A stretch of 64,000 nucleotides of DNA from an uncultured bacterium. GTDB lineage: Bacteria > Verrucomicrobiota > Kiritimatiellia > CAIVKH01. Position 1 is the stretch's first letter. Each line of letters opens with the position of its first letter. Below are positions 321 to 63,514 of this stretch, piece by piece. Under the pieces are notes generated by a model. That model had not been told where the DNA came from, searched no databases, and was given only the letters and a program-made list of their open reading frames with translations. The DNA lies in the NCBI GenBank assembly GCA_903906425.1, contig CAIVKH010000238.1, forward strand, positions 4,444-68,443, read 5' to 3'. Made by a program: the position numbers and the translations under genes.

Positions 321-367
321 TTCCAATGATTGGAAATTTGCCGGGCGGGGTTTTCCAATGATTGGAA
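321..367. repeat. P15 pair: 2 x TTCCAATGATTGGAA, 32-bp phase
   Basis: Perfect copies at 321-335 and 353-367. Spacer atttgccgggcggggtt. Intergenic. Confidence 0.95.
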
Positions 368-471
368 GTTGCGGTGGGCGGGGCGGGCGGCGGATCAGGG
401 GCGCGCTTTTGGGGCAGTTTTCCGACGATTCTTGCGAAAATATGGCAAAACGGGCGGAATGTGGCGGTTGT

Positions 472-723
472 TCATGCGGTGTCCGTCATATTAGTAACGC
501 ACGATTGCACAGAAGCGATGTCCGTCGTCATCTCCGCCATTATTCCGGTCATCTTCACAATGATTCCGCTCGACTTGGCAATGATCACGCTCATCGTCGC
601 AATTAGCCCTGTCATGGTCGGAGTGAATATTGTCATCTTCTGAATGATTCTGGTTATATCAGTATTCGATCCGAGCATTGCATGAACGATCCTTGTCATG
701 GTAGTAATGCTCCCTGTCATGGA
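472..723. repeat. Degenerate tandem array, about 12 x 21 bp (consensus roughly cgcAATGATtCcgGTCATctt)
   Basis: Cutting 472-723 into 21-mers aligns AATGAT and GTCAT blocks in most units. The minus ORF 472..720 reads as heptads (MTGSITT MTRIVHA MLGSNTD ITRIIQK MTIFTPT MTGLIAT MSVIIAK SSGIIVK MTGIMAE MTTDIAS ...). The region is visibly AT-richer than its flanks. Confidence 0.8.
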
Positions 724-862
724 CGCCTCGTTTCCGGGCCTCGCCGAATTTTTCCCGGGCGTCGCCGGTGCGTCCGCGGTGGCGCGCGGTTTGATGGATG
801 GGGTCGCTCTCCCGCATTTCGCGGTGAGCGCGGAGGTCCGGATGGAGGACGAAAGGAATAGT

Positions 863-1189
863 ATGAGCGATGCATTGAGTAATCAGCCGGTCGTCGCGGT
901 TCCAGGGCTGGAACAGGCGCTGGGCGCGATCGACAGTTTGACGCGGTGGCGGGTGCTTTCGACGCTGGCGCTCGGCGAGGCGCTGCTGATCGTGGAGCTG
1001 TCGGAGAAGCTGGAGGTGGATCAGTCGGCGATGTCGAGGCACATGGCGGTGCTGTTTCGCGCGGGGATGGTGACGCGGAACCGGGCGGGGCAATACCGGA
1101 TTCCGCCGCAGTTCCTGAAGGAGCCGGGAAAGCGCGTGGCGGATTTCGGCCACTTCGTGCTGCGACTGGAGCCGGCGGCGGAAGAATGA
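863..1189 (+). CDS. ArsR/SmtB-family winged-helix transcriptional regulator (no Cys metal site visible)
   Basis: ...RWRVLSTLALGEALLIVELSEKLEVDQSAMSRHMAVLFRAGMVTRNRAGQYRI... is an ArsR-type HTH plus wing. ATG at 863 is preceded by ggaggac/aaagga. The track ORF 698.. is probably an N-terminal over-extension. Confidence 0.7.
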   Translation: MSDALSNQPVVAVPGLEQALGAIDSLTRWRVLSTLALGEALLIVELSEKLEVDQSAMSRHMAVLFRAGMVTRNRAGQYRIPPQFLKEPGKRVADFGHFVLRLEPAAEE

Positions 1190-1238
1190 GCGACGAGCAG
1201 GCTTTCCGGCGCGGCGGCGGTTCTGGTATGGAAAAAGC

Positions 1239-2435
1239 GTGACGACGAAATCTCAAATGAGCGGCCGCATCGCTTTTGTCTGCCCGCGCTTTTCCGAGGG
1301 CGCGACCGTCGGCGGGGCGGAGACGCTGCTGAAGGCGCTGGCGATTCGCTGCGCGAAGGCGGGGCGGAAGGTTGATTTCCTGACGACTTGCGCGACGAAT
1401 CATTATACGTGGGAAAATTCCATTCCGGCCGGCTCGAAGGAAACCGACGGAATGACGGTCCGATTTTTTCCGGTGAACGATGATCGCGATGTTTCGAATT
1501 TTCTTCGCGTGCAGGGCGCGATTGACAAGCGCGTGAAGGTCGGAGCGGAAGACGAGCAGGTGTGGATCGGCAACAGCGTGAACTCGCGCGCGCTGATCGA
1601 GCACCTGCAGAAGCACGCGGGCGACTACGACCGGATCGTGATGGGGCCGTATCTTTTCGGCGTCGTTTATTTCGCCAGCAAGGTCGCGCCGGAAAAAACG
1701 CTGATGGTTCCGTGCCTGCACGACGAGGCGTTCGCGTATCTCGGCATCATGAACGAGATGTTCAACCGCGTTCGCGGTTTCATGTTCAACACGCACCCCG
1801 AGCAGGCGCTGGCGCAAAAACTTTACGGCGTCCCCGATTCGAAATGCAGCGTCGTCGGCCTCGGCGTCGAGTCGTTCGACGCGGACCCGAAGGCGTTCGC
1901 CGCGCGCCGCGGCATCGCGTCGCCGTACGTCGTCTATTCGGGCCGCCGCGAACCGCTGAAGGGAACGCCGCTGCTGACCGCCTACGTCCATGCGTTCCGC
2001 GAGCGCACCGGCCGCGATGTGAAAATCGTCTTCACCGGCAGCGGCCAGATTGACGCGCCGGCCGGGATGGACGAGCACATCATCGACGTTGGCTTCGTTT
2101 CCGAGCAGGAAAAACATGAGGCGATGGCCGGCGCGGTCGCGTTCATTCATCCCTCCGTCAACGAGAGTCTCGGCATCGTCCTGCTGGAATCGTGGCTGGC
2201 GCGCACGCCCGCGCTGGTCCACGCGAAGAGCGCGGTGCTTCGCGACCAGTGCCTGCGCAGCGGCGCGGGCCTGTGGTTTCGCCGCTATCCGGAATTCGAG
2301 GAGGAACTCTCGCTGCTGCTCGACAACCCCGATCAGCGCCGCGCGCTCGGCGAGGCCGGGCGAAATTTCGTTCAGCGCGAGTACGCCTGGAGCGCCGTCG
2401 AGTCGCGGTTGTTCGCCGCGCTGGACGCGCTTTGA
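1239..2435 (+). CDS. Glycosyltransferase, GT4/GT1 (GT-B) family
   Basis: C-terminal domain has REPLKG...HPSVNESLGIVLLESWLARTPALV (E-x7-E-type motif). Alternative start is ATG 1257 (MSGRIAFVCPRF). Confidence 0.8.
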   Translation: MTTKSQMSGRIAFVCPRFSEGATVGGAETLLKALAIRCAKAGRKVDFLTTCATNHYTWENSIPAGSKETDGMTVRFFPVNDDRDVSNFLRVQGAIDKRVKVGAEDEQVWIGNSVNSRALIEHLQKHAGDYDRIVMGPYLFGVVYFASKVAPEKTLMVPCLHDEAFAYLGIMNEMFNRVRGFMFNTHPEQALAQKLYGVPDSKCSVVGLGVESFDADPKAFAARRGIASPYVVYSGRREPLKGTPLLTAYVHAFRERTGRDVKIVFTGSGQIDAPAGMDEHIIDVGFVSEQEKHEAMAGAVAFIHPSVNESLGIVLLESWLARTPALVHAKSAVLRDQCLRSGAGLWFRRYPEFEEELSLLLDNPDQRRALGEAGRNFVQREYAWSAVESRLFAALDAL

Positions 2436-2449
2436 CGCGCAGCGCTGGC

Positions 2450-2496
2450 TTCCAATGATTGGAAGTTGCGGCAGGCAGATTTTCCAATGATTGGAA
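2450..2496. repeat. P15 pair, 32-bp phase
   Basis: Perfect TTCCAATGATTGGAA at 2450-2464 and 2482-2496. Spacer gttgcggcaggcagatt. Lies between the GT4 stop (2435) and the sulfatase start (2519). Confidence 0.95.
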
Positions 2497-2518: not shown

Positions 2519-3988
<1,470 letters not shown>

Positions 3989-4805: not shown

Positions 4806-5885
4806 ATGCCCGCCATTCACCAGCTTGTCGCCGGATTCAGCAAGGGCGACGCGATCAGCAACGAGGCGCGCGTGCTGCGCGCGATGTTCCGCTCGTGGGG
4901 GCACACGTCGGAAATTTTCTGCGAGACGAAAAGAATTCTTCCGGAGCTGCGGAAGGATTGCCGTGAGTTGCAGACGGCGGCCGGAACCATCGCGCCGGAC
5001 GATGTCGTCGTCCTGCATCTTTCCATCGGCTCGCCGATCAACGAAATTTTTCCGCGGCTGCCGGGCCGCAAGCTCATCGTCTACCACAACGTCACGCCGC
5101 CGGATTTCTTCCGCGGCCTCAGCGAGGAAATCCGCGGGCTGCTTCGTCGCGGCCTCGAGCAGGCGCGCGCGCTGGCGGGCGTCGGCGAAGTCACCGTGGC
5201 CGACAGCAAGTTCAACGCGACGGAACTTGAGGCGATGGGACACCGCAATGTGCAGGTGATGCCGCTGATGCTCGATCGCGCGCAGTGGGAGGGCGACTGC
5301 GACCGCCGGGTTCTCGGGCAAATGCGCGACGGGATGAAGAATATTTTGTTCGTGGGCCGCTGCGCGCCGAACAAGCGGATCGAAGATTTGATCTTCGCGT
5401 TTTACTTCTTCCAGAAATACGTCACGCCGGAATCGCGGCTGATCCACGTCGGTTCGTGGGCCGGCATCGAACGCTACTACGCGCTGCTGCGAACGAAGGC
5501 GGCCGACCTGCGGATGGAAAACGTGCTGTTCACCGGCTCGATTCCGCCCGCGCAATTGCGCGCCTATTTTCAGACCGCCGATGTTTTCCTTTCGATGAGC
5601 GAGCACGAGGGCTTCTGCATTCCGCTGATCGAGGCGATGGCCCACGGCGTGCCGGTGATGGCGTTCGCGGCGGGCGCGGTGCCCGACACGCTCGACGGCG
5701 CGGGCGTTTTGTTCCGCGAGAAAAAATTCGACGCCGTCGCCGAGATGCTCGGCAAACTTTGCGCGGACTCCACGCTGCGCCAGTCCGTCATTGCCGCGCA
5801 GCGCGCCCGCGTGGACCGCTACTTCGCGCAGGATATTCCGAAGCGCTGGCGCGATGCGCTCGCGCCGCTGCTGGCCGGCCGGTAG
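4806..5885 (+). CDS. Glycosyltransferase, GT4 family
   Basis: ILFVGRCAPNKR...LSMSEHEGFCIPLIEAMAHGVPVMAFAAGAVPDTL. Confidence 0.85.
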   Translation: MPAIHQLVAGFSKGDAISNEARVLRAMFRSWGHTSEIFCETKRILPELRKDCRELQTAAGTIAPDDVVVLHLSIGSPINEIFPRLPGRKLIVYHNVTPPDFFRGLSEEIRGLLRRGLEQARALAGVGEVTVADSKFNATELEAMGHRNVQVMPLMLDRAQWEGDCDRRVLGQMRDGMKNILFVGRCAPNKRIEDLIFAFYFFQKYVTPESRLIHVGSWAGIERYYALLRTKAADLRMENVLFTGSIPPAQLRAYFQTADVFLSMSEHEGFCIPLIEAMAHGVPVMAFAAGAVPDTLDGAGVLFREKKFDAVAEMLGKLCADSTLRQSVIAAQRARVDRYFAQDIPKRWRDALAPLLAGR

Positions 5886-5886: not shown

Positions 5887-5934
5887 TTCCAATCATTGGA
5901 AAACACCGCTTGCGAAAACTTCCAATGATTGGAA
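5887..5934. repeat. P15 pair, 33-bp phase
   Basis: TTCCAATCATTGGAA at 5887-5901 and TTCCAATGATTGGAA at 5920-5934, both perfect. Starts 2 nt after the GT4 stop codon. Confidence 0.95.
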
Positions 5935-5984: not shown

Positions 5985-6002
5985 GGGGGCGGGGGGGGGG
6001 GG
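5985..6002 (+). repeat. Homopolymeric tract GGGGGCGGGGGGGGGGGG (G5-C-G12)
   Basis: Read directly: G at 5985-5989, C at 5990, G12 at 5991-6002. The tract ends 15 nt upstream of ATG 6018 of the beta-helix protein gene. Confidence 0.9.
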
Positions 6003-6017: not shown

Positions 6018-7571
6018 ATGGCGATGAAAAAGGCGGCACTCATATTCGGTTTTGTCCTCGCTCCCGTTCTGGGCGCAGTCTCCGCGACGTGGCACGTTGC
6101 GACCAACGGCAACGACCGCGCGGATGGCGCGGGTCCGGCAACGGCCAAGGCCTCGATTCAGGCCGCGATTGATCTGGCCGCGCCGGGCGACATCGTGCTG
6201 GTCGGCGATGGCGTTTATGCCACCGGCGGCCGCGTGGCCATCGGCGCGCTCACCAACCGCATCGTGGTTCGAACCGGCGTTTGCGTACAGAGCGTCAACG
6301 GGCCTTCGCGAGCGGTCATCCGCGGCTCCGGCGCGCCCGATGTCAACGCCGTGCGCTGCGCGTATCTTGGGAAGGACGCCAGCCTGTGCGGCTTCACGCT
6401 GACCGGCGGCGGCACCACGGTGGACAACGTGAAGCCCGACTGCCACGGCGGCGGGGTTTATTGCGAGCCGTCGGCCGTGCTGAGCAACTGCGTGCTCGCT
6501 GGCAACGGGGCGTTTCACGACGGCGGCGGCGCCTATTGCGGAACGCTGAACAATTGCGTGCTGCGCGGCAACTCCGCGCTCTTCGGCGGCGGCGCGTTCG
6601 CCGCCACGCTGAACAACTGCACGCTGTACGGCAACACCGCGTCCTATGGCGGCGGCTCCGCGTGGTATGGCACGCTGAACAACTGCATCCTCTCGAACAA
6701 TTCCGCGCTCTTCGGCGGTGGCTCGGACAACGACAGCGCGCTGAACAACTGCATCCTCACCGGCAACACCGCCGAGCGCAATGGCGGCGGATCGGATGGC
6801 GGCACGCTGAACAACTGCACGCTGGCCGGCAACACCGCCAGCCGCAACGGCGGCGGCACCGATGGCGGCACGCTCAACGGCTGTGTCCTGTCCGGAAATT
6901 CCGCGGGGCGAAACGGCGGCGGATCGGAGGGCGGCTGGCTGGCCCGTTGCACGCTGGCCGGCAATGCCGCCGGCAATCTCGGCGGCGGCGCGCATCTCGG
7001 CGCGCTCAACAACTGCGTCATCGCCGGCAACTCCGCGATCGGCGGCGGCGGCGCGGCGTATGCGGCGCTGGACAACTGCGTCGTTTCCGGCAACACCGCG
7101 CGCGCCTATGGCGGCGGCACATTTCAAGGCACGCTCAACAACTGCCTGCTCACCGGCAACTCCGCCGCCTTCAGCTTCGGCGGCTCGCTCGGCGGCACGC
7201 AGAACAACTGCACGGTTGTCGGCAACACTGCCGGCAATCACGGCGGCGGCATCAGCGGCGCCGAGCTCAACAACTGCATCGTTTATTTCAACACCGCGCC
7301 CGAAGCGCCCAACGGCAGCAGCAATCTCATGAACCACTGCTGCACCGCGCCCCTGCCCGCCGAAGGAACCGCCAACATCACCAACGATCCCGGCTTCATC
7401 AACGCCGCCGCGGCCGACTACCGCCTCGATTTGCATTCCCCCTGCATTGACGCGGGCGGCAAGACCGGCCTTCCGCCCGCGGCCGATCTCGACAACAAGC
7501 CCCGCGTCGTCAACGGCGTCATCGACCTCGGCGCCTACGAATTTCAAGGTGCCAAGCCCACCGCCCCGTGA
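6018..7571 (+). CDS. Secreted right-handed beta-helix repeat protein (DUF1565-like N-terminus, about 13 Pmp-like repeats, choice-of-anchor-Q-like C-terminus)
   Basis: Signal peptide MAMKKAALIFGFVLAPVLGAVSA. N-terminus WHVATNGND...GDIVLVGDGVY. About 13 repeats of roughly 22-23 aa (LNNCxLxGNxAxxxGGG). C-terminus DPGFINAAAADYRLDLHSPCIDAG...IDLGAYEF. Confidence 0.8.
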   Translation: MAMKKAALIFGFVLAPVLGAVSATWHVATNGNDRADGAGPATAKASIQAAIDLAAPGDIVLVGDGVYATGGRVAIGALTNRIVVRTGVCVQSVNGPSRAVIRGSGAPDVNAVRCAYLGKDASLCGFTLTGGGTTVDNVKPDCHGGGVYCEPSAVLSNCVLAGNGAFHDGGGAYCGTLNNCVLRGNSALFGGGAFAATLNNCTLYGNTASYGGGSAWYGTLNNCILSNNSALFGGGSDNDSALNNCILTGNTAERNGGGSDGGTLNNCTLAGNTASRNGGGTDGGTLNGCVLSGNSAGRNGGGSEGGWLARCTLAGNAAGNLGGGAHLGALNNCVIAGNSAIGGGGAAYAALDNCVVSGNTARAYGGGTFQGTLNNCLLTGNSAAFSFGGSLGGTQNNCTVVGNTAGNHGGGISGAELNNCIVYFNTAPEAPNGSSNLMNHCCTAPLPAEGTANITNDPGFINAAAADYRLDLHSPCIDAGGKTGLPPAADLDNKPRVVNGVIDLGAYEFQGAKPTAP

Positions 7572-7596: not shown

Positions 7597-7643
7597 TTCC
7601 AATGATTGGAAATGGCCGCGGCGAAAAGTTCCAATCATTGGAA
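7597..7643. repeat. P15 pair, 32-bp phase
   Basis: Perfect copies at 7597-7611 (G centre) and 7629-7643 (C centre). Spacer atggccgcggcgaaaag. Confidence 0.95.
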
Positions 7644-11025: not shown

Positions 11026-11072
11026 TTCCAATCATTGGAAAAAACGCCCGCGCAAACTTCCAATGATTGGAA
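11026..11072. repeat. P15 pair, 32-bp phase
   Basis: Perfect copies at 11026-11040 (C) and 11058-11072 (G). Spacer aaaacgcccgcgcaaac. Lies 18 nt after the E2 stop. Confidence 0.95.
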
Positions 11073-13704: not shown

Positions 13705-13751
13705 TTCCAATGATTGGAAATGGCCGGTGCGTCAGTTTCCAATCATTGGAA
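13705..13751. repeat. P15 pair, 32-bp phase
   Basis: Perfect copies at 13705-13719 (G) and 13737-13751 (C). Spacer atggccggtgcgtcagt. Confidence 0.95.
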
Positions 13752-17672: not shown

Positions 17673-17719
17673 TTCCAATGATTGGAAGTTGCGGGCGAGC
17701 AAATTTCCAATCATTGGAA
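17673..17719. repeat. P15 pair, 32-bp phase
   Basis: Perfect copies at 17673-17687 (G) and 17705-17719 (C). Spacer gttgcgggcgagcaaat. Lies between the GT9 stop and the hemW start on the minus strand. Confidence 0.95.
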
Positions 17720-20433: not shown

Positions 20434-22133
20434 GGATTTTTCTCCGCGTCTTTTCGGAACAAAAAGGCGCTGACATCGAGCCGCGGCTGCTTCGCGAACG
20501 GCGCGGCCGGAATCGCGGACACATCCAGCGGTTGCTTCCGCGCCGAGCAGAGCAGTACATCGCCGGAATTCATGCCGGCCCAAGTCGCGGCAAGTCCGTT
20601 CGTGGACACGGCGACGTCGCGATGCGCGTACCAGGCGATGATCGAATTATGCGGGCCGGAAATGATGAACCGCGGCGCGGCCCGGATCGCCGCACGATTC
20701 GATGCGAGGAGTTCGACAATCGCGTGGTCGGCATCAACGATCTGTTCGAGCCGCAACGCATGGATTCCCGTCGCAAAGGCCAGGACAGCGGCGCAGGCAA
20801 CCATCGGCGCGATGACATCGCAGCGGAAAAAAAGCCGGAACAGCGCGACCGCGGCAAGCACCGAAACAAACGCGCCGGCCCAACCGAAAACGCGCGGCCA
20901 GGAAATCGGGCATGCGAAAAACCATGCCGCGAAAATCAGGAAGCCGGCCACCAGCGCGATCAGGCAGAGCGCGATGAGATAGACGCGCGCGAAGCCGGAG
21001 CAAAAATCGCGGCGCGGTTTCGTCTTTTCCAATGATTGGAAGTTTGCGCGGCCGTCTTTTCCAATGATTGGAAGTTTGCGCGCGGCCTCCGCGAGCAGCC
21101 AGCCGGTCAGAAGCGCGGACGGGGCGAAGAGCAGGAGCGCGTAGTGATTTTGTTTGCTGCTCAGCGCGCTGAGGATCGCGAACGAGGAGGCGAGCCAGCA
21201 AAGGAGATAGAGCGGGCCGCGATGGTGGCGGAGTTTTTTTGCGGCGCCAAAGATCGCGACGGGCAGCGCGAGCGCCCAGATGCCCAGGCGCGCGGGCAGC
21301 GTCCAGACGTAATAAAATATTGGGCCTTTGTGCGCTGATTCGGTCAGCAGGCGGTTGATTTCGTCGCCGGCCTGCGCGTTCGTGTTCGCCGTTTTGAGCG
21401 CGACGGCGATGTACCACGGCGCGGCGATGGCAGCGCAGATGACTAGCGCGACGATGATGCCGCGCAAAGTGAGAGCCGCGCGATGAGAACGCGCGACGAA
21501 AATAAATGTCGCCACGGCAGCGATGGGCATGGCGACGGAGGCGGGGCCTTTGAACATGAATCCGATGCCTGAAAAAATTCCGGCGAAAATCCAATGCTTC
21601 AGGTTTCCTGTGCGAACGGTCAGCGCGGTGAAGATCGAAAAAATCGTGAGCGAACAGAACAGTGCTTGCGGGATGTCGGTCTCGGCGAGGCGGGCGTGAC
21701 GGAGAAAGCCGACGGATGTGGCGAGGATGATGGCGCCAACAAATGCGGCGCGGCGGCCGATCAATCTTCGCCCGAGAAAAAATGTCGCAAGGACAAATGC
21801 GGTGCCGGCAGCCGCGGAAATTGCGCGCGCGGCGGCGGCGCTTTCGGTGGTGCCGGCGGCTTTGAAAGCCGAGGCGACGAGCCAGTACATGAGCGGCGGT
21901 TTGCGCAATCGTTCCGCGCCCATGAAATGCGGCACGATCCAGCTTCCGCCTTCGGCCATTTCGCGCGCGGCAAGCAAAACGCGGAGTTCCTGCTGGCGCG
22001 AAACGGAGCTTGCGCCCAGGCCTGGCAGCAGCAGCGCGGCGCACAGTAGGATGAGAAATGCGGCGGCCAGCCAGTTGTTTCTGGCAAGTTTGGAAATTGA
22101 AAACATGTTCGCGAACGCGGACGTTGCGTGCAC
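20430..22133 (-). CDS. ArnT-like GT39/PMT_2 family membrane glycosyltransferase (paralogue A) carrying an in-frame P15 pair
   Basis: SRQQELRVLLAAREMAEGGSWIVPHFMGAERLRKPPLMYW and many TM segments. The loop ...AEAARKLPIIGKDGRANFQSLEKTKPRRDF... is encoded by P15 copies at 21027-21073. Confidence 0.8.
   Translation of the reverse strand: MHATSAFANMFSISKLARNNWLAAAFLILLCAALLLPGLGASSVSRQQELRVLLAAREMAEGGSWIVPHFMGAERLRKPPLMYWLVASAFKAAGTTESAAAARAISAAAGTAFVLATFFLGRRLIGRRAAFVGAIILATSVGFLRHARLAETDIPQALFCSLTIFSIFTALTVRTGNLKHWIFAGIFSGIGFMFKGPASVAMPIAAVATFIFVARSHRAALTLRGIIVALVICAAIAAPWYIAVALKTANTNAQAGDEINRLLTESAHKGPIFYYVWTLPARLGIWALALPVAIFGAAKKLRHHRGPLYLLCWLASSFAILSALSSKQNHYALLLFAPSALLTGWLLAEAARKLPIIGKDGRANFQSLEKTKPRRDFCSGFARVYLIALCLIALVAGFLIFAAWFFACPISWPRVFGWAGAFVSVLAAVALFRLFFRCDVIAPMVACAAVLAFATGIHALRLEQIVDADHAIVELLASNRAAIRAAPRFIISGPHNSIIAWYAHRDVAVSTNGLAATWAGMNSGDVLLCSARKQPLDVSAIPAAPFAKQPRLDVSAFLFRKDAEKNP
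21027..21073. repeat. P15 pair inside a CDS, 32-bp phase
   Basis: Perfect TTCCAATGATTGGAA at 21027-21041 and 21059-21073. Spacer gtttgcgcggccgtctt. Translated on the minus strand as PIIG...FQSLE. Confidence 0.95.
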
Positions 22134-24881: not shown

Positions 24882-24928
24882 TTCCAATGATTGGAAACTG
24901 CCGTTGCCGGATTTTCCAATCATTGGAG
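24882..24928. repeat. P15 pair, 32-bp phase
   Basis: Perfect copy at 24882-24896. Copy at 24914-24928 is ttccaatcattggaG (1 mismatch). Spacer actgccgttgccggatt. Confidence 0.9.
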
Positions 24929-27006: not shown

Positions 27007-28175
27007 AACCGATTCGCCCCAATGAAAATTTTCTCATCTTCGGCTCGCCCGCGATCGAGCAGCCGGAAATTGACGAGGTGATGGATTGTTTCAAGCGCAG
27101 CTGGCTCGGCACCGGGCCGAAGGTCGCGAAGTTCGAGGAGGATTTTTGTGGTTATATCGGCGCGCCGAATGCGACGGCGGTGAATTCCTGTACCGCTGCA
27201 CTTCATCTGAGTTTGATCGCCAGCGGCGTCGGGCCCGGCGACGAGGTCATCACGACGCCGATGACGTTTTGCGCGACGGCGAACGCGATCATTCACGCGG
27301 GCGCAATGCCGGTGCTCGCGGACGTCGATCCGCAAACGATGAATCTCGATCCGCGCGAGGTGGCGAAAAAAATCACGCCGAAGACTCGCGCGATCTTGCC
27401 AGTGCATTTTGCGGGACGCCCGTGCGACATGCCGGCGCTCGTCGCGCTGGCGGAAAAACACGGGCTGAAGATCATCGAGGATTGCGCACACGCGATCGAA
27501 ACGCAGATTGGCGAAAAACACGCGGGAACGTTCGGCGATTTCGGCTGTTTCAGTTTTTATGTGACGAAAAACATCATCACCGGCGAGGGCGGGATGGTCG
27601 TGACGAAACGCGAGGAGGACGCCGCACGGATCAAGATGCTCGCGCTGCACGGCATGAGCAAGGACGCGTGGAAGCGGTTCAGCGACGAGGGCTACAAGCA
27701 TTATCAAGTGGTCGAATGCGGCTTCAAATACAACATGATGGACGTGCAGGCAGCGATCGGAATCCACCAGCTGCGGCGCATTGAAACCTACTGGCGACGC
27801 CGGACGGAGCTCTGGGCGCGCTACAACGAAGCATTTGCGAAGCTTCCGATCACGCTGCCCGCGCCCGCCGCGCCCGGCACGCGCCACGCATTTCATCTTT
27901 ATTCGATTTTCGTGGACGAGTCGCGCTGCGGAATTTCGCGCGACGCCTTTCTCGACGGCATGACGCGGCACAACATCGGCGTCGGCGTTCACTATCTGAG
28001 CCTGCCGGAACATCCGTATTATCAGCGCACATTCGGCTGGCGCGCCGGGGATTTTCCGAACGCGATGAAGATCGGCCAGCAGACCGCGAGCCTGCCGCTT
28101 TCGGCAAAACTCACAGATGACGATGTCGCGGATGTGATCGCGGCGGTGCGGCAGCTCTGCGGGAATTTCCAATGA
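27003..28175 (+). CDS. DegT/DnrJ/EryC1/StrS-family PLP-dependent sugar aminotransferase
   Basis: ...CTAALHLSL..., FCATANAIIHAGAMPVLADVD, FSFYVTKNIITGEGGMVVT (PLP Lys). ATGA overlap with DUF362. The stop TGA is the centre of P15 copy 28167-28181. Confidence 0.9.
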   Translation: MKPIRPNENFLIFGSPAIEQPEIDEVMDCFKRSWLGTGPKVAKFEEDFCGYIGAPNATAVNSCTAALHLSLIASGVGPGDEVITTPMTFCATANAIIHAGAMPVLADVDPQTMNLDPREVAKKITPKTRAILPVHFAGRPCDMPALVALAEKHGLKIIEDCAHAIETQIGEKHAGTFGDFGCFSFYVTKNIITGEGGMVVTKREEDAARIKMLALHGMSKDAWKRFSDEGYKHYQVVECGFKYNMMDVQAAIGIHQLRRIETYWRRRTELWARYNEAFAKLPITLPAPAAPGTRHAFHLYSIFVDESRCGISRDAFLDGMTRHNIGVGVHYLSLPEHPYYQRTFGWRAGDFPNAMKIGQQTASLPLSAKLTDDDVADVIAAVRQLCGNFQ

Positions 28176-28213
28176 TTGGAAGTTGCGAGGGCTGTTTTTT
28201 CCAACCATTGGAA
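28167..28213. repeat. P15 pair, 32-bp phase
   Basis: Perfect copy at 28167-28181. Copy at 28199-28213 is ttccaaCcattggaa. Spacer gttgcgagggctgtttt. Confidence 0.9.
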
Positions 28214-31556: not shown

Positions 31557-32635
31557 AAATCGGCATCATCGGATTTGGCGGAGCAGGTCAGGCGCATTAC
31601 CGCCGCTTTGTCACGTTGCCCGGCGTGTCGGTTGCGAGGGTATTCGAGCCGAAGCCGGACAACCGCGCAAAGTGGCAGAAACAATTTCCGCAAATTACGT
31701 TCGCGACAAGCCGCGAGGAGTTGCTCAATGCCGTTGACCTTGTGAGCATCTGCACGCCGGATCACCTGCACGCCGGCGATGCGCTTGCGGCAATCGGCGC
31801 CGGCAAACATACGCTGGTTGAAAAACCGATGGTCACGACCCGCGGGGATGCGGAACAAATCGCCGTGGCGCTTCAGATCAATCCGCGTGTTGTTTTCGGC
31901 GTTCACCACCAGATGCGTTTCATTCCGGCCTTTGTTGCGGCCCGCGATCTTTTGCAGCGCGGCGAACTCGGCACCCTGCTGGCGCTGGAGGCGGACTATC
32001 TTCACGACATGCGTGAGCGCGCGACGTTGTTCGACGACTGGCGGGTCCGCCCGGAAGGTTTTCAGCAGATCGGCCTCGGCGGCTTGTCACACACGCTGGA
32101 TCTGCTGCGCTGGGTGGCGGCGGATGAGATTGCAGAAGTCCACGCCTACGGCGGCCACAATGGCTGGCCCGAATATCCGGACATCGACACGATGACCGCG
32201 ACGCTGCGTTTCCGCTGCGGAGCAATCGGGCGGACGTTCATGACGATCGCCAGCCCCGGCCCTCAACGCAACACGCTGGCGGTCTACGGCTCGAACGGCC
32301 AGGTCCGGGACAACGTTCTCTGGCCGGCCCGGCGCACGCGGCCCCGCCTCACCGTCGTCCCGCGCAGTCTGGCGGCACGGAAACGCGACCGCGCAGGGCT
32401 GGCAATCGCCGGTTTGCTGACAAGATTTTCCATGTTCCGCAACTATCCGCTCAGCGCCTACGAGCACGACGAAGCGAGCCTGCGGCTGGTGCGGGAGTTC
32501 ATTTTATGCGCACGCGATGGCCGCCCGTTTTCCATCGGCGTCGAAGATGGCCGGCGCGCGGTCGACCTGTGCCTCGCCTGCATCGAATCGCAGCGCGGCG
32601 GCCGGCCCGTCGCTCTTCCAATGATTGGAAAATGA
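31553..32635 (+). CDS. Gfo/Idh/MocA-family NAD(P)-dependent sugar oxidoreductase
   Basis: MKIGIIGFGGAGQAHY Rossmann start, ...ICTPDHLHAGDALAAIGAGKHTLVEKP. ATGA overlap with the upstream methyltransferase. The C-terminal ...LPMIGK is encoded by P15 copy 32616-32630. Confidence 0.85.
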   Translation: MKIGIIGFGGAGQAHYRRFVTLPGVSVARVFEPKPDNRAKWQKQFPQITFATSREELLNAVDLVSICTPDHLHAGDALAAIGAGKHTLVEKPMVTTRGDAEQIAVALQINPRVVFGVHHQMRFIPAFVAARDLLQRGELGTLLALEADYLHDMRERATLFDDWRVRPEGFQQIGLGGLSHTLDLLRWVAADEIAEVHAYGGHNGWPEYPDIDTMTATLRFRCGAIGRTFMTIASPGPQRNTLAVYGSNGQVRDNVLWPARRTRPRLTVVPRSLAARKRDRAGLAIAGLLTRFSMFRNYPLSAYEHDEASLRLVREFILCARDGRPFSIGVEDGRRAVDLCLACIESQRGGRPVALPMIGK

Positions 32636-32662
32636 CGCGACGCACACTTCCAATCATTGGAA
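32616..32662. repeat. P15 pair, 32-bp phase
   Basis: Perfect copies at 32616-32630 (G) and 32648-32662 (C). Spacer aatgacgcgacgcacac. Confidence 0.95.
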
Positions 32663-34139: not shown

Positions 34140-35384
34140 ATGCCGCTGCGCGTCCTTCATGTTTTCGGCCAGTACCTCCACGATACGGAGAACTGGGCGT
34201 TTCGTCTGATCCGCGACATTCCGGACTGCAAAGTACTCGTCGGCGCAGAGCAGTTTCTGAAATGCGGCTTCTACGATCCCCGCTTCGAATTCATCGAGTT
34301 TCCATTCCGGCAGTGGGACCGTCCGCGGCGGAACATTCTCGAACGCGCCGCGAACGGCTTCATCAGCCACGCGCTGCTGCCGTTCTATCCACGCTGGCTC
34401 GCAAGCCAGTCCGGGCCGGTTGACATCGTCCACGCACACTTTGGCTACATCGGCTGGCAGTATCTTCCGACGGCGCGGAAACTGCGCGCGCCGCTCGTCG
34501 TTTCCTTTTACGGCTCCGACTACAGCCGCCTGCCGACCGAGCAGCCCGTCTGGCGGGAGCGCTACCGCGACCTCTTCGGCGAGGCGGCTCTCATCCTGTG
34601 CGAAGGTTCGCACGGCATCGAGCAGCTTGTTGCGCTCGGCTGCCCGCGCGAAAAAATCGCCGTTCAACACCTCGGCATCGATCTGAAAACCTCCGTCGCC
34701 GGGCGCGAAACGGAAATTTCCAATGATTGGAAAAATGCCGCCGGAAGACTTCCAATCATTGGAAATTTTTTTGCGCCGCGGACGAAGAGGCCGGGCGAGT
34801 TGCGCCTCGTGCAGGTGGCGACGATGCGCGAGAAGAAGGGGCACATCTATACCGCACAGGCGTTCAGGGAGGCGTTCGCGGATTGCCCGAACCTGACGCT
34901 GACTTTCGTCGGCGGCGACAAGGAAGACCTGAAGGGCGGCGTGGAAAAAGCGCTCGGCCCGGCGCTTTCGCGCGTGGAGTTTCTCAGCGGAATCGATTTT
35001 GCGCGGCTGCACGAATTCCTGCGCGGATTTCATGTCTTCATTCATCCGAGCGTCCACGCTGCAAACGGTGACTGCGAGGGCGGCGCGCCGGTCGTGCTGC
35101 TCGACGCGCAGGCAACGGGAATGCCGGTGATCGCCACGCGGCATTGCGACATTCCCGAGGAAGTCCGCAACGGCGAAACCGGATTGCTCGCGGATGAAAA
35201 GGATGTGGCCGGCCTTGCCGCGGCGATCCGCCGGTTTTATGCGATGGATCAGGCGGAATATGACGGGTTCGCGACGCGCGCAGCGCGGCATGTGGCGGCG
35301 GAATATGAGACGGGAAGGAATGCCGCGGCGCTGCGGGCGCGCTATGATGAAATCGCGGCTGGTCATCGGCGCGCGGGACCGTAG
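34140..35384 (+). CDS. Glycosyltransferase GT4 family carrying an in-frame P15 pair in the interdomain linker
   Basis: MPLRVLHVFGQY..., ...VATMREKKGH..., IHPSVHAANGDCEGGAPVVLLDAQATGMPVIATRHCDIPE. The linker ...GRETEISNDWKNAAGRLPIIGNFFAPR... is encoded by 34718-34764. Confidence 0.8.
   Translation: MPLRVLHVFGQYLHDTENWAFRLIRDIPDCKVLVGAEQFLKCGFYDPRFEFIEFPFRQWDRPRRNILERAANGFISHALLPFYPRWLASQSGPVDIVHAHFGYIGWQYLPTARKLRAPLVVSFYGSDYSRLPTEQPVWRERYRDLFGEAALILCEGSHGIEQLVALGCPREKIAVQHLGIDLKTSVAGRETEISNDWKNAAGRLPIIGNFFAPRTKRPGELRLVQVATMREKKGHIYTAQAFREAFADCPNLTLTFVGGDKEDLKGGVEKALGPALSRVEFLSGIDFARLHEFLRGFHVFIHPSVHAANGDCEGGAPVVLLDAQATGMPVIATRHCDIPEEVRNGETGLLADEKDVAGLAAAIRRFYAMDQAEYDGFATRAARHVAAEYETGRNAAALRARYDEIAAGHRRAGP
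34718..34764. repeat. P15 pair inside a CDS, 32-bp phase
   Basis: Perfect copies at 34718-34732 (G) and 34750-34764 (C). Spacer aaatgccgccggaagac. Confidence 0.95.
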
Positions 35385-37714: not shown

Positions 37715-37761
37715 ATCCAATCATTGAAAAAATGCCCTCCCCTGATTTCCAATCATTGGAA
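37715..37761. repeat. P15 pair (first copy degenerate), 32-bp phase
   Basis: aTCCAATCATTGaAA at 37715-37729 (2 mismatches). Perfect TTCCAATCATTGGAA at 37747-37761. Confidence 0.85.
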
Positions 37762-44172: not shown

Positions 44173-44220
44173 TTCCAATCGTTGGAAAGCTTCGATGCCG
44201 GACACTTCCAGTCAGTGGAA
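44173..44220. repeat. P15 pair, both copies degenerate, 33-bp phase
   Basis: ttccaatcGttggaa at 44173-44187 and ttccaGtcaGtggaa at 44206-44220. Confidence 0.75.
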
Positions 44221-46234: not shown

Positions 46235-47607
46235 ACACACACCTTCTTACCTACCTAAATCTGCAGCGCCTCATCGGCTCGCGCTGCGATCTGCACTATC
46301 GCGAGTTCCAATCATTGGAAAAGGCGGACGCGGAAACTTCCAATGATTGGAACTCGGCGAAACTCGAATCGCTCTTGCGGGACGCGGCGGAAAAAATTCC
46401 GTTTTATCGCGGGGTCGTCGCAAGAAAATCTCCGGCACTTTCCGACTTTCCGGTTCTGACGAAGGAAACAATTCGTGCGCGGTATTTCGATTTGATGTCG
46501 CCGCTGTTGCGGGCGGAATACGAGGCGAACGGCGGAAAATGTCCGCAACGCTACGGCTGGCTCGAAGTGAAGACAGGCGGTTCGACGGGTGTTCCGCTTG
46601 CTGTGATTCATGAGAAAGATTTTCGCGATCTCGACCGAGCATCGCGGATTTATCAGCAGGATTTGTGCGGCTTTCCGTTCGGCACGCCATATTTTCGTTT
46701 GTGGGGTTCGATGGCGGACATCAATGCGATGAAAGATTCGCGGCTTCATCGCACAATGACGGCATTGGCGCGCGAGGAATTGCTCAACGCGTTTCGGATG
46801 GAAGAGGCGCAGATGGATTTGTATCTCGACCGGATTGACCGCAGCGATGTCCGCCACATGATGGCCTACACAGACGCGGCATTCGCGCTCGCACGGCACG
46901 CGCGCAGGCGTGGGAGAGAAATTCGTCCGCTCAAAAGCATCATGGCGTGTGCGGGAACCGTGACGGACGATATCCGCGCGGAGCTTCGCGAAGTTTTCGG
47001 CGCGCGCATTCACAACAAATACGGGAGCCGCGACGCGGGCGAGATGGCTATCGAATGCGAGCGCGGCGGGCTTCACGAACTTTCGACTGCGATACATCTC
47101 GAAATCGTGGACGCAAACGACAGGCCATGTGCGCCGGGCGTTTCGGGCCGACTGCTGGTGACGTGCCTGTGCAATTTCAACTTCCCGATCATTCGCTACG
47201 AAATCGGCGATGTCGCCGCGTGGTCGGGCCGCGCGTGCGAATGCGGAAGACCGCAGCCGGTTTTGGAAAGGCTTGAAGGCCGTTGCGTCGAATTTGTCAC
47301 TCGCGAAAACGGCGATTACGTTTCGCCGATTTTCGTGATTCATATTGTTGGCGTGGTTCACAATCCCGGTTTCATTGAACGATTCCAGCTTGAGCAGACC
47401 GGCGCGTCGGAATTCGTGTTGCGCGTCGAAACAAAAACGCCGCTGACAGATTCTGCGCGCAATTCCTGGTGGCCCGCTCTGGAACGCGATTTGAAAACAG
47501 TTTTCGGCGCGGGCGCCCGGCTCGATTTGTATCTGACCGATAGAATTCCCGAAAGCGGCAGCGGAAAGTTTCTTTATGTTATCAATCGTCTTGGTGCGTT
47601 CAGATGA
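46231..47607 (+). CDS. Phenylacetate-CoA-ligase/CapK-family adenylate-forming enzyme
   Basis: ...LLRDAAEKIPFYRG..., KTGGSTGVPLAVIH (AMP-binding P-loop-like). The GTG start overlaps the upstream TGA (GTGA). The N-terminal ...REFQSLEKADAETSNDWNS... is encoded by the P15 pair. An alternative in-frame TTG at 46375 cannot be excluded. Confidence 0.7.
   Translation: MNTHLLTYLNLQRLIGSRCDLHYREFQSLEKADAETSNDWNSAKLESLLRDAAEKIPFYRGVVARKSPALSDFPVLTKETIRARYFDLMSPLLRAEYEANGGKCPQRYGWLEVKTGGSTGVPLAVIHEKDFRDLDRASRIYQQDLCGFPFGTPYFRLWGSMADINAMKDSRLHRTMTALAREELLNAFRMEEAQMDLYLDRIDRSDVRHMMAYTDAAFALARHARRRGREIRPLKSIMACAGTVTDDIRAELREVFGARIHNKYGSRDAGEMAIECERGGLHELSTAIHLEIVDANDRPCAPGVSGRLLVTCLCNFNFPIIRYEIGDVAAWSGRACECGRPQPVLERLEGRCVEFVTRENGDYVSPIFVIHIVGVVHNPGFIERFQLEQTGASEFVLRVETKTPLTDSARNSWWPALERDLKTVFGAGARLDLYLTDRIPESGSGKFLYVINRLGAFR
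46306..46352. repeat. P15 pair within the 5' part of an ORF, 32-bp phase
   Basis: Perfect copies at 46306-46320 (C) and 46338-46352 (G). Spacer aaggcggacgcggaaac. Confidence 0.95.
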
Positions 47608-51599: not shown

Positions 51600-51646
51600 T
51601 TCCAATCATTGGAAAAAACGCCCGCGCAAAATTCCAATCATTGGAA
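51600..51646. repeat. P15 pair, 32-bp phase
   Basis: Perfect TTCCAATCATTGGAA at 51600-51614 and 51632-51646. Spacer aaaacgcccgcgcaaaa. Confidence 0.95.
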
Positions 51647-56366: not shown

Positions 56367-56445
56367 TTCCAAGGATTGGAACTTTGCGCTGCGAAGTCCT
56401 CCAATGATTGGAAGTTTGCGCGGGCGGAATTTCCAATGATTGGAA
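56367..56445. repeat. P15 triplet, 32-bp phase
   Basis: ttccaaGgattggaa at 56367-56381, Ctccaatgattggaa at 56399-56413, perfect copy at 56431-56445. Spacers ctttgcgctgcgaagtc and gtttgcgcgggcggaat. Confidence 0.9.
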
Positions 56446-59373: not shown

Positions 59374-59400
59374 CCCCGGATTCCCGGGGACGTTTTTTTT
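59374..59400 (+). terminator. Rho-independent terminator after ppdK
   Basis: Stem ccccgg/ccgggg with loop attc (59374-59389), followed by acg and T8 (59393-59400). Confidence 0.75.
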
Positions 59401-59409: not shown

Positions 59410-59521
59410 TTCCAACCATTGGAAAATCCCGGCGCGCAAACCTCCAATCATTGGAGAAATCCGGCGCACAGATTTCCAACCATTGGAAACTTTCGGGTGC
59501 GATGGTTTCCAATCATTGGAA
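59410..59521. repeat. P15 quadruplet, 32/32/33-bp phase
   Basis: ttccaaCcattggaa at 59410-59424, Ctccaatcattggag at 59442-59456, ttccaaCcattggaa at 59474-59488, perfect copy at 59507-59521. Confidence 0.9.
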
Positions 59522-60482: not shown

Positions 60483-60529
60483 AATCCAATCATTGGAAAA
60501 TTTCGCGATCGAAACTTCCAATGATTGGA
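60483..60529. repeat. P15 pair (each copy 1 mismatch), 32-bp phase
   Basis: Atccaatcattggaa at 60483-60497 and ttccaatgattggaT at 60515-60529. Convergent gene ends on both sides. Confidence 0.85.
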
Positions 60530-60556
60530 TTTTTTCTTCGCCGGCTCGCGACAGTT

Positions 60557-62134: not shown

Positions 62135-62193
62135 GGTTTCCCTTTCATTCGCAGGTCAAATTCGCCGGACAACAAATACTTTCGCGCCGCAAT

Positions 62194-62240
62194 TTCCAAT
62201 CATTGGAAAACTGGATTGCTCAAACTTCCAATGATTGGAT
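62194..62240. repeat. P15 pair, 32-bp phase
   Basis: Perfect copy at 62194-62208. ttccaatgattggaT at 62226-62240. Spacer aactggattgctcaaac. Confidence 0.9.
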
Positions 62241-62267
62241 CTGCGCTGGCGGGCCGCCAGCGATTCA

Positions 62268-63347
62268 TCACCGCTGGACGCGCGCGTTGCCCTTCCAGAT
62301 GCTCCAGATCTGGTCTTCATCGGCGGGCTGCGCGTAATCGGTGAGGAACGTCGTCGCGAGCGCGCCGCTGGCCCAGCCGAACTGAATCCATTTTTCCGGC
62401 GCCCAGCCCTTGAGGATTGCGCAGAGCATCCCGCCGACGAATCCGTCGCCACCGCCGATGCGGTCGAGCACCGTGATGTCGCGCGGTTCGACGACGAACC
62501 ACTCGTCGCCCGCGGCCATGATCGCGCCCCAGAGGTGATGGTTCGTGTCCACGACTTCGCGCAGCGTCGTCGCGTAGGTCGAGGCATTCGGATACGCCTT
62601 TTTCACGCGGTTGATCATTTCCTTGAAACTCTCGATCTCCGCCTTGAGTCCTTTGCCGCCGGCTTCGGGGCCTTTGACGCCGAGACAGAGCTGAAAGTCT
62701 TCTTCGTTGCCGACGAGCACGTCGGAGACGCCCGCGATTTCGGCGAAGATGGCGGACAACTCCTTCTCGCGTCCCTTCCAGAACGTCGCGCGGTAATTCA
62801 GGTCGAACGAAATCTTCGTGCCGTATTTTTTCGCCGCGCGGGCGAGTTCGAGACAGAACTTGCTGGTCTCCGGCGACAACGCGCCGATCAGGCCCGACAG
62901 ATGGAGGATCTGAACGCCTTCCTTGCCGAAGATGCGGTCGAGATCGAAATCCTTCACGTTGAGCGTGCGGCCGACTTCGCCGGCGCGGTCGTTCCACACG
63001 CGCGGGCCGCGCGAACCGTAGCCGCTGTCGGCGATGTTGAATTGATGGCGAAACCCCCACGGTCCGCCTTGCGCGACTTCCGGCCCCTCGAAATCCATTC
63101 CGCGGCTGCGCAGGTTGTCCTTGATGATCTGCGCAATCGGGCTGCCCTTCACGAACGTCGTCAAAATTTTCACCGGCAATCCGAGATACGACGAAATGCT
63201 CGCCACGTTCGACTCCGCGCTGGTCGCCTGCATGATAAATGTTCCGCCCACATTCACCGGCTGACCGCCCGGCGGCGTAATGCGGATGCCCATGCTCGTC
63301 GGCACGACGAGCGCATATTTGCAATTCTTCTTCAGTTCGATTTTCAT
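62268..63347 (-). CDS. PfkB-family sugar kinase (2-dehydro-3-deoxygluconokinase-like)
   Basis: ...DRIGGGDGFVGGMLCAIL (PfkB signature 2). ATG at 63347 with SD aggaaaaa; the track start 63407 is probably an extension. Confidence 0.8.
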   Translation of the reverse strand: MKIELKKNCKYALVVPTSMGIRITPPGGQPVNVGGTFIMQATSAESNVASISSYLGLPVKILTTFVKGSPIAQIIKDNLRSRGMDFEGPEVAQGGPWGFRHQFNIADSGYGSRGPRVWNDRAGEVGRTLNVKDFDLDRIFGKEGVQILHLSGLIGALSPETSKFCLELARAAKKYGTKISFDLNYRATFWKGREKELSAIFAEIAGVSDVLVGNEEDFQLCLGVKGPEAGGKGLKAEIESFKEMINRVKKAYPNASTYATTLREVVDTNHHLWGAIMAAGDEWFVVEPRDITVLDRIGGGDGFVGGMLCAILKGWAPEKWIQFGWASGALATTFLTDYAQPADEDQIWSIWKGNARVQR

Positions 63348-63467
63348 GATTTTTCCTGGTTGGTTAAAGTTGACCTCAAACGTGTGAGGTCGTTGTTTTC
63401 GACGCAAGAAGATTTTTCAGCATCCACCCGGGAACCCGGTGCGGATCGGGCGCACCCGCAATCCACT

Positions 63468-63514
63468 TTCCAATGATTGGAACTTTGCGCCCCCGCAATT
63501 TCCAATCATTGGAA
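63468..63514. repeat. P15 pair, 32-bp phase
   Basis: Perfect copies at 63468-63482 (G) and 63500-63514 (C). Spacer ctttgcgcccccgcaat. Confidence 0.95.

Follow-up and report, generated by a model that had tools for sequence, protein, structure and literature searches.

Three-turn-phased palindromes dispersed through a Kiritimatiellia genome: possible mobile cassettes of protein-recognition sites

What maintains a short and nearly invariant palindrome, always in phased groups and mostly at the ends of genes, along a stretch of bacterial DNA? The question is raised by 64 kb from an uncultured member of the Kiritimatiellia (GTDB lineage Bacteria; Verrucomicrobiota; Kiritimatiellia; CAIVKH01; GenBank assembly GCA_903906425.1, contig CAIVKH010000238.1, positions 4,444 to 68,443 of the forward strand), in which a 15-bp palindrome, TTCCAATSATTGGAA, recurs in 21 separate sets. 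We refer to this whole 64-kb stretch as the "window" and number its positions from its first letter; each set is named by its first position, and the central bases of its copies are given in brackets. The DNA covered consists of the 64 kb of the window genome together with pieces of up to ~20 kb from other genomes, the latter designated by L numbers, and gene starts are either our own calls or those of public gene callers. The answer that we tentatively favour is that the sets are mobile cassettes of phased recognition sites for a sequence-specific protein, which either moves the cassettes or gives them a role in the host.

Copy number, phasing and placement of the sets

When up to two mismatches are allowed, TTCCAATSATTGGAA has 45 matches at 21 loci in the window, where 0.16 would be expected by chance, and none of 100 shuffled windows reached 45. 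The copies are perfect in 32 cases and carry one mismatch in ten and two in three. They are grouped into 19 doublets, one triplet (56367) and one quadruplet (59410), with no lone copies, and the start-to-start distance within sets is 32 bp except at three junctions (5887/5920, 44173/44206 and 59474/59507), where it is 33 bp. An earlier inspection of the letters of the window, called the sequence-only reading below, had arrived at the same 45 copies and 21 loci, the same absence of single copies, the same division into groups of two, three and four, the same spacing with its three exceptions and, by manual count, the same 32 perfect copies with one or two mismatches in the rest; 20 of its 21 locus starts were right, and the one that it placed at 60483 lies at 60484. 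Its remark that the palindromes are much better conserved than the spacers is borne out by the lower information content of the spacers.

A relaxed form of the core, TTCCAANNNTTGGAA, has no match outside the sets in the window (42 matches with one mismatch and 45 with two), where 2.4 stray matches would be expected, and the 58 kb of coding DNA in the window are free of single or near-miss copies. The total length of the sets is 1,086 bp, or 1.7% of the window, whose G+C content is ~60%. With the copies co-oriented, their flanks are A/T-rich for 3-4 nt and then G/C-rich, and the inner spacer has the consensus RTTTSCGC-N-GCGSAAAY; an extended 31-bp palindromic unit or long hairpin built on this consensus was rejected, because the consensus reflects base composition only and there is no excess of complementarity within sets. 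Every copy contains CCAN5TGG (for example at 323-333), the recognition pattern of PflMI-type restriction enzymes. The gene content of the window is ordinary, with a large polysaccharide and glycosyltransferase cluster, a 2-oxoacid dehydrogenase operon, and genes for enolase, ArgRS, PPDK (gene ppdK), a sulfatase and prepilin-like proteins; a tRNA scan found no tRNA genes in the window and Rfam 15 gave no match there at the gathering threshold.

An origin of the sets as an artefact of assembly, vector or adapter sequence, or as a chance outcome of base composition, is already refuted and can be dismissed. The copy number lies beyond all 100 shuffles, identical DNA was recovered in independent assemblies from other samples, and some sets are translated in frame within orthologous proteins of other samples. 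The motif is also present in the isolate genomes of Tichowtungia aerotolerans (CP047593), Pontiella desulfatans and Pontiellaceae bacterium B1224. The sequence-only reading had named confinement to this contig, or a match to a vector or an assembly artefact, as the sign of an artefact; the motif is carried instead by other assemblies and other species.

Eighteen of the 21 sets are extragenic, while ~90% of the window is coding. Among these 18, 15 start between -20 and +28 nt from the stop codon of a gene that is transcribed toward them, and this placement near the stop codon persists where the gap to the next gene measures 130-530 bp. The 3' ends of genes are overlapped by two sets; convergent gaps hold two sets and divergent gaps one. 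The sequence-only reading overstated matters in placing sets at almost every operon or gene boundary: a set is found at 18 of the 54 gene junctions or, if only intergenic gaps that measure 45 bp or more are counted, in 18 of 27, and three sets (21027, 34718 and 46306) lie inside open reading frames (ORFs), which run through all three. A rough, ORF-based check of other genomes suggests that many of their sets also lie a few nucleotides after a stop codon.

Gain, resizing and conservation of the cassettes

Alignments of window genes and gene junctions with those of relatives show cassettes that were evidently gained as blocks of ~45-72 bp. The glycosyltransferase family 4 (GT4) gene at 34140-35384 contains a doublet (G,C; 34718..34764) in frame, and at exactly this point its protein is longer by 24 residues, which fall in the linker that joins the two GT-B domains; this insertion is absent from all eight aligned homologues, including ones that are 64-68% identical. 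At the DegT/AsnS junction the window has a doublet (G,C; 28167..28213) whose first palindrome contains the stop codon of the DegT gene (TGA, 28173-28175), whereas the corresponding junction of the syntenic locus L009 is an empty gap of 22 nt. Similarly, a doublet (G,C; 32616..32662) overlaps the 3' end of the GFO/IDH gene and ends 21 nt before the flippase gene, and in L009 the two genes meet in a TGATG overlap without a set. Over the same cluster the window has five sets, compared with one, zero and one pairs, at other positions, in L009, L013 and L014 (~20 kb each). The number of near-identical spacer pairs in the window exceeds a position-specific null (p ~0.01), and sets 11026, 51600, 21027 and 56399 constitute one spacer subfamily, which indicates that whole doublets have been copied between distant loci. 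The first of these, a doublet (C,G; 11026..11072) that lies between convergent genes and follows the E2 acyltransferase stop codon by 17 nt, has a spacer nearly identical to that of the doublet (C,C) at 51600..51646, which lies 22 nt after a stop codon; the two spacers differ by 1 nt.

Comparisons within the species and with its nearest relative show, in addition, arrays that grow and shrink by one 32-bp unit. The doublet (G,G) at 21027..21073 lies in frame within a PMT_2 glycosyltransferase gene (20430-22133, minus strand), where it encodes LPIIGK...FQSLEK, and there is no difference between its two 32-bp units (100% identity). A contig of the same species (L235) is 100% identical to the window over 16.9 kb except that exactly one of these units is missing; the single-unit allele shifts the frame and yields a product of 446 residues (P0361) rather than 567. 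Such a change of unit number resembles phase variation, in which strand slippage would turn a surface-glycosylation enzyme on and off. In the nearest relative (L232, PPDK 92% identical) the ppdK gene is flanked by two and at least two copies, compared with three and four in the window. There the triplet (G,G,G; 56367..56445) ends 63 nt upstream of a promoter-like site for ppdK (56509-56536, TTGACT-16-TAGTAT), and the quadruplet (C,C,C,C; 59410..59521, with the last interval 33 bp) follows closely on the canonical terminator of ppdK (59374-59389 and a T-run). Doublets in general are free of a tandem-duplication signature, which was seen only in sets 21027, 56367 and 59410.

The same comparisons show copies persisting at places where they are tolerated, namely 0-30 nt after stop codons or in frame within loops and linkers. 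Sets also decay: in an orthologous triple set the half-sites of L025 have changed at 7 of 24 positions relative to L037, though the spacer is conserved, and in another relative (L233, PPDK 82% identical) 15 kb contain no copy. Such patchy decay and absence are what the loss of a trans-acting factor would produce.

The core that is conserved between genomes is T-TTCCAA-N3-TTGGAA-A, of which TTCCAATSATTGGAA is the local version in the window genome. Within the genome collection, at least six further species have the paired motif ("uncultured Verrucomicrobiota" metagenome-assembled genomes, or MAGs, and Pontiellaceae bacterium B1224), and the closest named relatives of the window PPDK come from Kiritimatiellae, Kiritimatiellia or Verrucomicrobiota MAGs. 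What is kept from species to species is limited to the pair of hexamers, their A/T flanks and a spacing of 30-33 bp; the spacers are unrelated. In relatives whose PPDK is 72-92% identical, sets flank ppdK at the same places with varied centre triplets (AGC, GCC, TGC, CCT and others); the upstream position is shared with L015, L017, L021 and L232, the downstream position with L015, L036-L038 and L232, and flanking sets were found in at least five relatives. Among 1.15 Mb of relatives' loci fetched via their proteins, with no constraint on spacing, 18 of 22 neighbouring copies are 30-33 bp apart, and in viral contigs, scanned for start-to-start distances anywhere from 23 to 45 bp, the distances were again mainly 31-32 bp.

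The set within the PMT_2 gene provides a sharper view of what is kept. An orthologue with 59% protein identity (L234) has a set that matches it in position and frame, with all 24 half-site positions identical to those of the window and only 8 of 17 in the spacer, and a second (L236, 50% identical) keeps 21 of 24 half-site positions and the same 32-bp phase; the set is absent from three other orthologues. The G+C content at third codon positions (GC3) of the L234 gene is 0.91, and the retention of CCA, GGA, AAA, CAA, TTG and GAA codons at such a GC3 amounts to a constraint at the level of DNA rather than protein. These comparisons show half-sites and a spacing that have stayed the same at the DNA level across long evolutionary distances. 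A comparison with paralogues was uninformative for this insertion, and orthologues were used in its place.

The core was found in two classes of the phylum Kiritimatiellota and in phages. Genes for a major head protein, terminase, portal and protease mark two of the viral contigs as real phage genomes, and their sets come directly after stop codons. The phage sites (L222, 10391-10436 and 10898-10912; L225, 650-767) include a copy 28 nt after the stop codon of the major head gene and a four-copy array upstream of packaging genes. A scan of viral contigs for single copies was uninformative, as every contig among the matches had one isolated copy. Families with 28-bp and 41-45-bp spacing in IMG/VR were set aside as having different extended motifs and being probably unrelated. 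We note separately that other families of phased palindromes sharing TTCCAA/TTGGAA halves exist (L227, 7607-7846; L216 and L224; L217, L219 and L220), either with a longer motif (GGAGTTCCAAASTTTGGAACTCC) at a spacing of ~42 bp or, in viral contigs with a G+C content of 47-48%, with a spacing of 28 bp; these may be dialects related to the present word or families in their own right. Another observation is that some relatives (L015, ~3760-3860; L038, ~2130-2210; L233, ~4990-5030) have a classical GTAG-tagged, G/C-rich palindrome (GTAGGGGCGCAGC...) resembling repetitive extragenic palindromic (REP) sequences next to TTCCAA sets, so that two repeat families coexist in some genomes.

A different regime is seen in two other lineages. 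In Tichowtungia aerotolerans (class Tichowtungiia) the core has 12 matches in 21.7 kb, compared with 0.08 expected, and seven of the 12 are inside ordinary genes (ilvD, uvrA and genes for an ABC ATPase, an aldo-keto reductase and a TPR protein); in Pontiellaceae B1224 there are nine matches in 8 kb, compared with 0.05 expected, five of which are single copies inside conserved Pfam domains. Codon alignments of ilvD show that sites were made by point substitutions beside a pre-existing half-site, some of them nonsynonymous (S to N; AV to RI). In the same region P. desulfatans has one pair and strain S94 (CP036201.1) only remnants. Transposition cannot make sites of this kind, and the word itself must be favoured in those genomes.

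Readings of the sets and their relation to known systems

The reading that we tentatively favour, of mobile cassettes of phased recognition sites, can be put as follows. Short cassettes that can be inserted and copied, resembling those of the REP sequences, bacterial interspersed mosaic elements (BIMEs) or the REP doublets known as REPINs, would carry two to four copies of a protein-recognition palindrome phased at 32 bp. Each palindrome would be bound by a dimer of a conserved, sequence-specific protein, and neighbouring dimers would lie on the same face of the helix, because 31.5 bp correspond to three turns. The putative protein might either mobilise the cassettes or give them a host function, which would explain why they are kept, and effects on transcripts, for example through a 15-20 bp hairpin just after a stop codon, would be secondary. 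A dimeric protein that binds double-stranded DNA fits better than a hairpin because of the 6-N3-6 layout, the three-turn phasing irrespective of spacer and the conservation at the DNA level at single loci. Of the three proposals made in the sequence-only reading, that of paired sites for a dimeric protein about three turns apart is the one that best fits the cross-species data, in which only half-sites and a 30-33 bp phasing are conserved.

REP units are short palindromes of 20-40 bp, REPINs are REP doublets mobilised by the Y1 transposases of REP-associated tyrosine transposase (RAYT) type, and Liang, Rudd and Deutscher reportedly found in 2015 that many E. coli REPs lie near stop codons. The window sets share with these families a short palindromic unit in high copy number that is mainly extragenic (45 in 64 kb; 18 of 21 sets), a predominance of doublets with a fixed distance and a less conserved spacer, and some ordered tandem clusters, here one triplet and one quadruplet (PMC3116915, PMC3733652). 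They also share signs of replication within the genome (spacer subfamilies at p ~0.01 and junctions filled here and empty in relatives), the copying of whole doublets without target-site duplication, and a patchy distribution between genomes with decay in some lineages. The sets differ in that they are without the GTAG/CGTC tag, that their unit is a perfect 15-bp palindrome whose orientation is set only by the centre base, that the spacer has neither complementarity nor compensatory changes, that the window genome has no single copies and that the core is conserved across two classes of the phylum. A set spans 47-64 bp, compared with 71 bp between the conserved 16-mers of a group-I REPIN doublet (PMC3116915). 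Di Nocera et al. (PMC3733652) considered that untagged REP-like families "likely occur" and asked about the association of such repeats with specific binding proteins.

Several observations weigh against the mobile-cassette reading. A hairpin kept by compensatory change, as in REP, BIME and REPIN families, is not seen, pairing being no higher than in shuffles; GTAG or CTAC occurs within 12 nt of only one of the 45 copies; and direct repeats of 3-6 nt, at any offset, flank at most three of the 21 sets, so that no target-site duplication is apparent. A miniature inverted-repeat transposable element (MITE) of DDE-derived type was rejected on that last ground. No transposase was found among the 40 of ~55 window proteins that were scanned or among the Pfam labels that most of the others carry, and no Y1_Tnp (RAYT) domain among the 40 scanned proteins or in the Pfam labels of the cluster genes at 24-45 kb; the only Y1_Tnp-like gene seen, with a weak hit of IS200/RAYT type in P. 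desulfatans (L230, 15689-16276, 195 residues), has no motif nearby. We infer protein binding only from the architecture of the sites; a set at the same position at 50-59% protein identity exceeds what is usually reported for REP loci; and transposition cannot explain the single copies that point substitution, some of it nonsynonymous, has created in conserved domains of ilvD, uvrA and other genes of T. aerotolerans and Pontiellaceae B1224. Two observations do not fit plain selfish DNA, namely the 24 of 24 half-site positions kept at GC3 0.91 and the single copies born by substitution in Tichowtungia and one Pontiellaceae genome. The suggestion in the sequence-only reading of a REP-, BIME- or MITE-like family has support where behaviour is concerned (insertion, copy-paste of spacers, change in unit number) and none as to membership, no target-site duplication, GTAG tag or transposase having been found in the window.

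Three rival explanations keep the palindrome and dispense with mobility as its cause. A role confined to RNA (or single-stranded DNA) structure, in which the two copies would pair into a stem of 15 bp around a loop of 17 nt and stabilise or terminate transcripts or direct their processing, strikes us as very improbable, in spite of the position of the sets just after stop codons and of predicted hairpins of 15-20 bp with energies of -20 to -40 kcal/mol and z-scores down to -7. The doublet (C,G) at 60484..60530, between convergent genes and 26 nt from each stop codon, is flanked by an A-run and a T-run that extend its stem to 20 bp with compensating changes at the ends, and some relatives have pairs in which one centre triplet is the reverse complement of the other. 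The stability of the predicted stem is, however, a property of the palindromes themselves. Covariation across the 21 aligned sets was not detected (68.8% of cells are standard pairs, compared with 70.2% in shuffles), pairing reaches 47% in the outer-flank helix and 42% in the spacer helix, only 13 of the 21 sets have a centre pair, and beyond the first 3 nt the complementarity of flanks and spacer halves is no higher within sets than between them. A structure would require neither a sequence invariant across the phylum nor arms that are palindromic in themselves, the single copies of other genomes cannot form the stem, and the sets have no Rfam match and no consistent T-run in the 12 nt after the last copy; the RNA stem of the sequence-only reading is physically possible, as a stable predicted hairpin, and has no support as the feature under selection. 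Somewhat better placed, yet still unlikely in our estimation, is the joint proposal that the sets are purely host-functional paired operators which mark gene ends genome-wide (as roadblock terminators, insulators or nucleoid or gyrase anchors) and that selection at each locus retains new sites that arise by rare duplication. Phased tandem operators ~31-32 bp apart for cooperative regulators include NrdR boxes, Lrp sites and NtrC enhancer sites, and like them the sets are odd-length or two-half-site palindromes that recur every three helical turns, an arrangement that implies dimers on a single face of the helix. The 6-N3-6 layout with its A/T flanks, phased at 30-33 bp whatever the spacer sequence, the location of sets between an upstream terminator or stop codon and the next promoter, as around ppdK in several species, the half-sites conserved in full against strong codon bias, and the phage sets right after stop codons, one of them behind the major head gene, all agree with this proposal. 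Against it, relatives have the same operons without sets, which makes the sets dispensable; some sets lie inside frames that stay open, which argues against efficient termination; and near-perfect identity is unusual for the sites of regulators or nucleoid proteins. The operators named above are degenerate and belong to small regulons upstream of specific promoters, whereas the sets are near-perfect, occur about once per 3 kb and mostly follow stop codons. The points against the operator and RNA-only explanations are the reason for which we rank both as weaker.

The third rival is the main one and is live, if not one that we expect to prevail: the word may be kept by genome-wide drive or selection, in the manner of DNA uptake sequences (DUS), uptake signal sequences (USS) or the highly iterated palindrome HIP1, through biased uptake and recombination or a methylation- or nucleoid-linked role, with mobility incidental and the phased pairs after genes as its intergenic form. 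Like DUS and USS (PMC3630211, PMC2397512) it is a high-fidelity word over-represented more than 100-fold, here ~150- to 400-fold; DUS are exceptionally over-represented, have "dialects" comparable to the centre triplets that differ between lineages, are missing from some Neisseriaceae as the present word is from some relatives, often form inverted intergenic pairs at terminators and occupy ~1-2.5% of a genome, as against 1.7% of the window (PMC3630211). The paired copies downstream of genes can likewise form stem-loops. Gene-internal copies made by point substitution in housekeeping genes, some nonsynonymous and beside a pre-existing half-site, are a further parallel, and while the over-representation is present in the window, intragenic single copies are absent there and present in T. 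aerotolerans and Pontiellaceae B1224. HIP1 (GCGATCGC) of cyanobacteria is also a palindromic, phylum-wide and hyper-abundant word whose abundance varies widely between genomes (PMC5861425, PMC4390886). It is over-represented 15- to 300-fold and conserved at orthologous positions within and between ORFs (PMC5861425), which implies selection at the DNA level, and the sets share such positions in PMT_2 (24 of 24 half-site versus 8 of 17 spacer positions) and around ppdK in at least five relatives. DUS and USS, on the other hand, are non-palindromic and have neither three-turn tandem phasing nor arrays of two to four copies, and HIP1 consists of 8 bp in scattered single copies linked to orphan methyltransferases, unlike the 6-N3-6 word of the Kiritimatiellota in groups typically phased at 31-32 bp and, in the window genome, on inserted cassettes. 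The coding DNA of the window, moreover, is without single or near-miss copies; entry as blocks with shared spacers is not predicted by a process driven by substitution; and phage contigs carry sets. We know of no competence in the Kiritimatiellota and found no paper that links the phylum to competence or to palindromic repeats.

Elements of these alternatives might be combined in a further interpretation, possible and at the same time doubtful, in which T-TTCCAA-N3-TTGGAA-A would be a dedicated word of the whole phylum, read by protein dimers three turns apart and under genome-wide selection or drive at the DNA level. It would possibly serve as a gene-end marker (protein-based terminator or insulator, or nucleoid anchor) or as a self-recognition signal for uptake or recombination, and its sites may be supplied by both point substitution and small mobile cassettes.

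Other described elements were considered and discarded. An intrinsic terminator was rejected because the stem is A/T-rich, the loop 17 nt long and a U-tract missing, and a terminator scan flags the ppdK terminator and not the sets. A sigma-70 promoter (TTGGAA-N17/18-TCCAAT) was rejected because the would-be -10 element is without the conserved A2 and because some sets are located within ORFs or in convergent gaps. A Fur-type 7-1-7 box (AATnATT core) was dropped because the centre varies in relatives, and a CRISPR array, which would have one or a few long runs of 23-47 bp repeats with unique spacers of 21-72 bp together with cas genes, because the 21 loci of two to four 15-bp repeats are dispersed, their spacers share a consensus and no cas domain is present in the 40 scanned window proteins. 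Rickettsia palindromic elements are small palindromic insertions of ~100-150 bp that land in frame in genes; the sets resemble them in their in-frame insertion into tolerant loops and linkers of intact proteins (the GT4, PMT_2 and CapK-like genes) and differ in that the sequence is unrelated and only three of 21 sets are intragenic. No paper in the library searched contains this 15-mer, and its 11-mer core appears only in unrelated primer or eukaryotic contexts.

The remaining sets, their neighbours and wider significance

The sets that have not been discussed above are placed as follows. An uncertain ORF ends 24 nt upstream of the doublet (G,G) at 321..367, and a MarR-like winged-helix gene (698-1189) that precedes a GT4 gene begins 330 nt beyond it; the 401-bp gap downstream of this set includes an array with a period of 21 bp (528-603, 3.6 copies, 72% matches). 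A similar array (11228-11300, 3.5 copies, 90% matches) is found in the 535-bp convergent gap downstream of set 11026. A second MarR-like gene (25024-25524), also downstream of a set, the doublet (G,C) in a divergent gap at 24882..24928, begins 95 nt beyond it and heads the polysaccharide cluster, as a similar gene heads the syntenic cluster of L014. The two MarR-like genes were considered as readers of the motif and are treated as local regulators with no link to it. Between GT4 and sulfatase genes, the doublet (G,G) at 2450..2496 follows a stop codon by 14 nt and precedes the next start by 22 nt. The doublet (C,G) at 5887..5934, with 33-bp spacing, begins 1 nt after a GT4 stop codon and is followed by a G12 homopolymer (5991-6002), which may be a second contingency tract and lies 16 nt ahead of the ATG of a gene (6018-7571) with a weak NosD or right-handed beta-helix match. 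This gene has ~11 tandem repeats of 66 bp (22 residues) at 6475-7280, with the peptide motif LNNC..GN.A, and the doublet (G,C) at 7597..7643 lies 25 nt after its stop codon and 172 nt before the E1-alpha gene.

Further along the window, a doublet (G,C; 13705..13751) is found 28 nt after a stop codon and 34 nt before a DUF2752 gene, another (G,C; 17673..17719) between two minus-strand genes, 15 nt after the stop codon of a GT9 gene, and a third (C,C; 37715..37761), whose first copy has two mismatches, 13 nt after a stop codon. The doublet (C,C) at 44173..44220 is degenerate, with 33-bp spacing, and is fitted between a GT2 stop codon (4 nt) and the next ATG (9 nt), and the doublet (C,G) at 46306..46352 lies in the 5' part of a CapK-like ORF (46231-47607), where it encodes residues 26-41 (FQSLEK...SNDWN). 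Two doublets lie between minus-strand genes near the end of the window, one (C,G; 62194..62240) 27 nt after the stop codon of a PfkB gene and the other (G,C; 63468..63514) 10 nt after a stop codon. In L014 a public gene call for a formyltransferase starts at an ATG inside the second palindrome of a set (4936-4950), which raises the possibility that sets supply start codons as well as stop codons.

What appears to be new, as judged from sequence comparison, is a REP-like family with obligate three-turn phasing of its perfect palindromes, a core conserved across a phylum and, in sister lineages, a single-copy form driven by substitution. It would be more than another REP family in that its core is common to two classes of a little-studied phylum, is kept against strong codon bias and in some genomes is built by substitution within housekeeping genes; the dedicated-word interpretation, if true, would join features of REP, DUS and HIP1 that are not known together in any system. 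The finding bears on the persistence of REPs and REPINs, on the evolution of uptake signals and on the questions posed by the HIP1 palindrome, and the presence of the word in cultured isolates (Tichowtungia aerotolerans, Pontiella) makes it accessible to experiment. If the window is typical, its genome would have on the order of a thousand sets, at ~1 per 3 kb and 1.7% of the DNA. In the window itself they reshape the ends of genes, one set supplying a stop codon, several adding 3' hairpins and three adding peptide segments. The word could serve as a lineage marker for the binning of Kiritimatiellota and their phages, and changes of one 32-bp unit are a possible on/off switch for surface-glycan genes.

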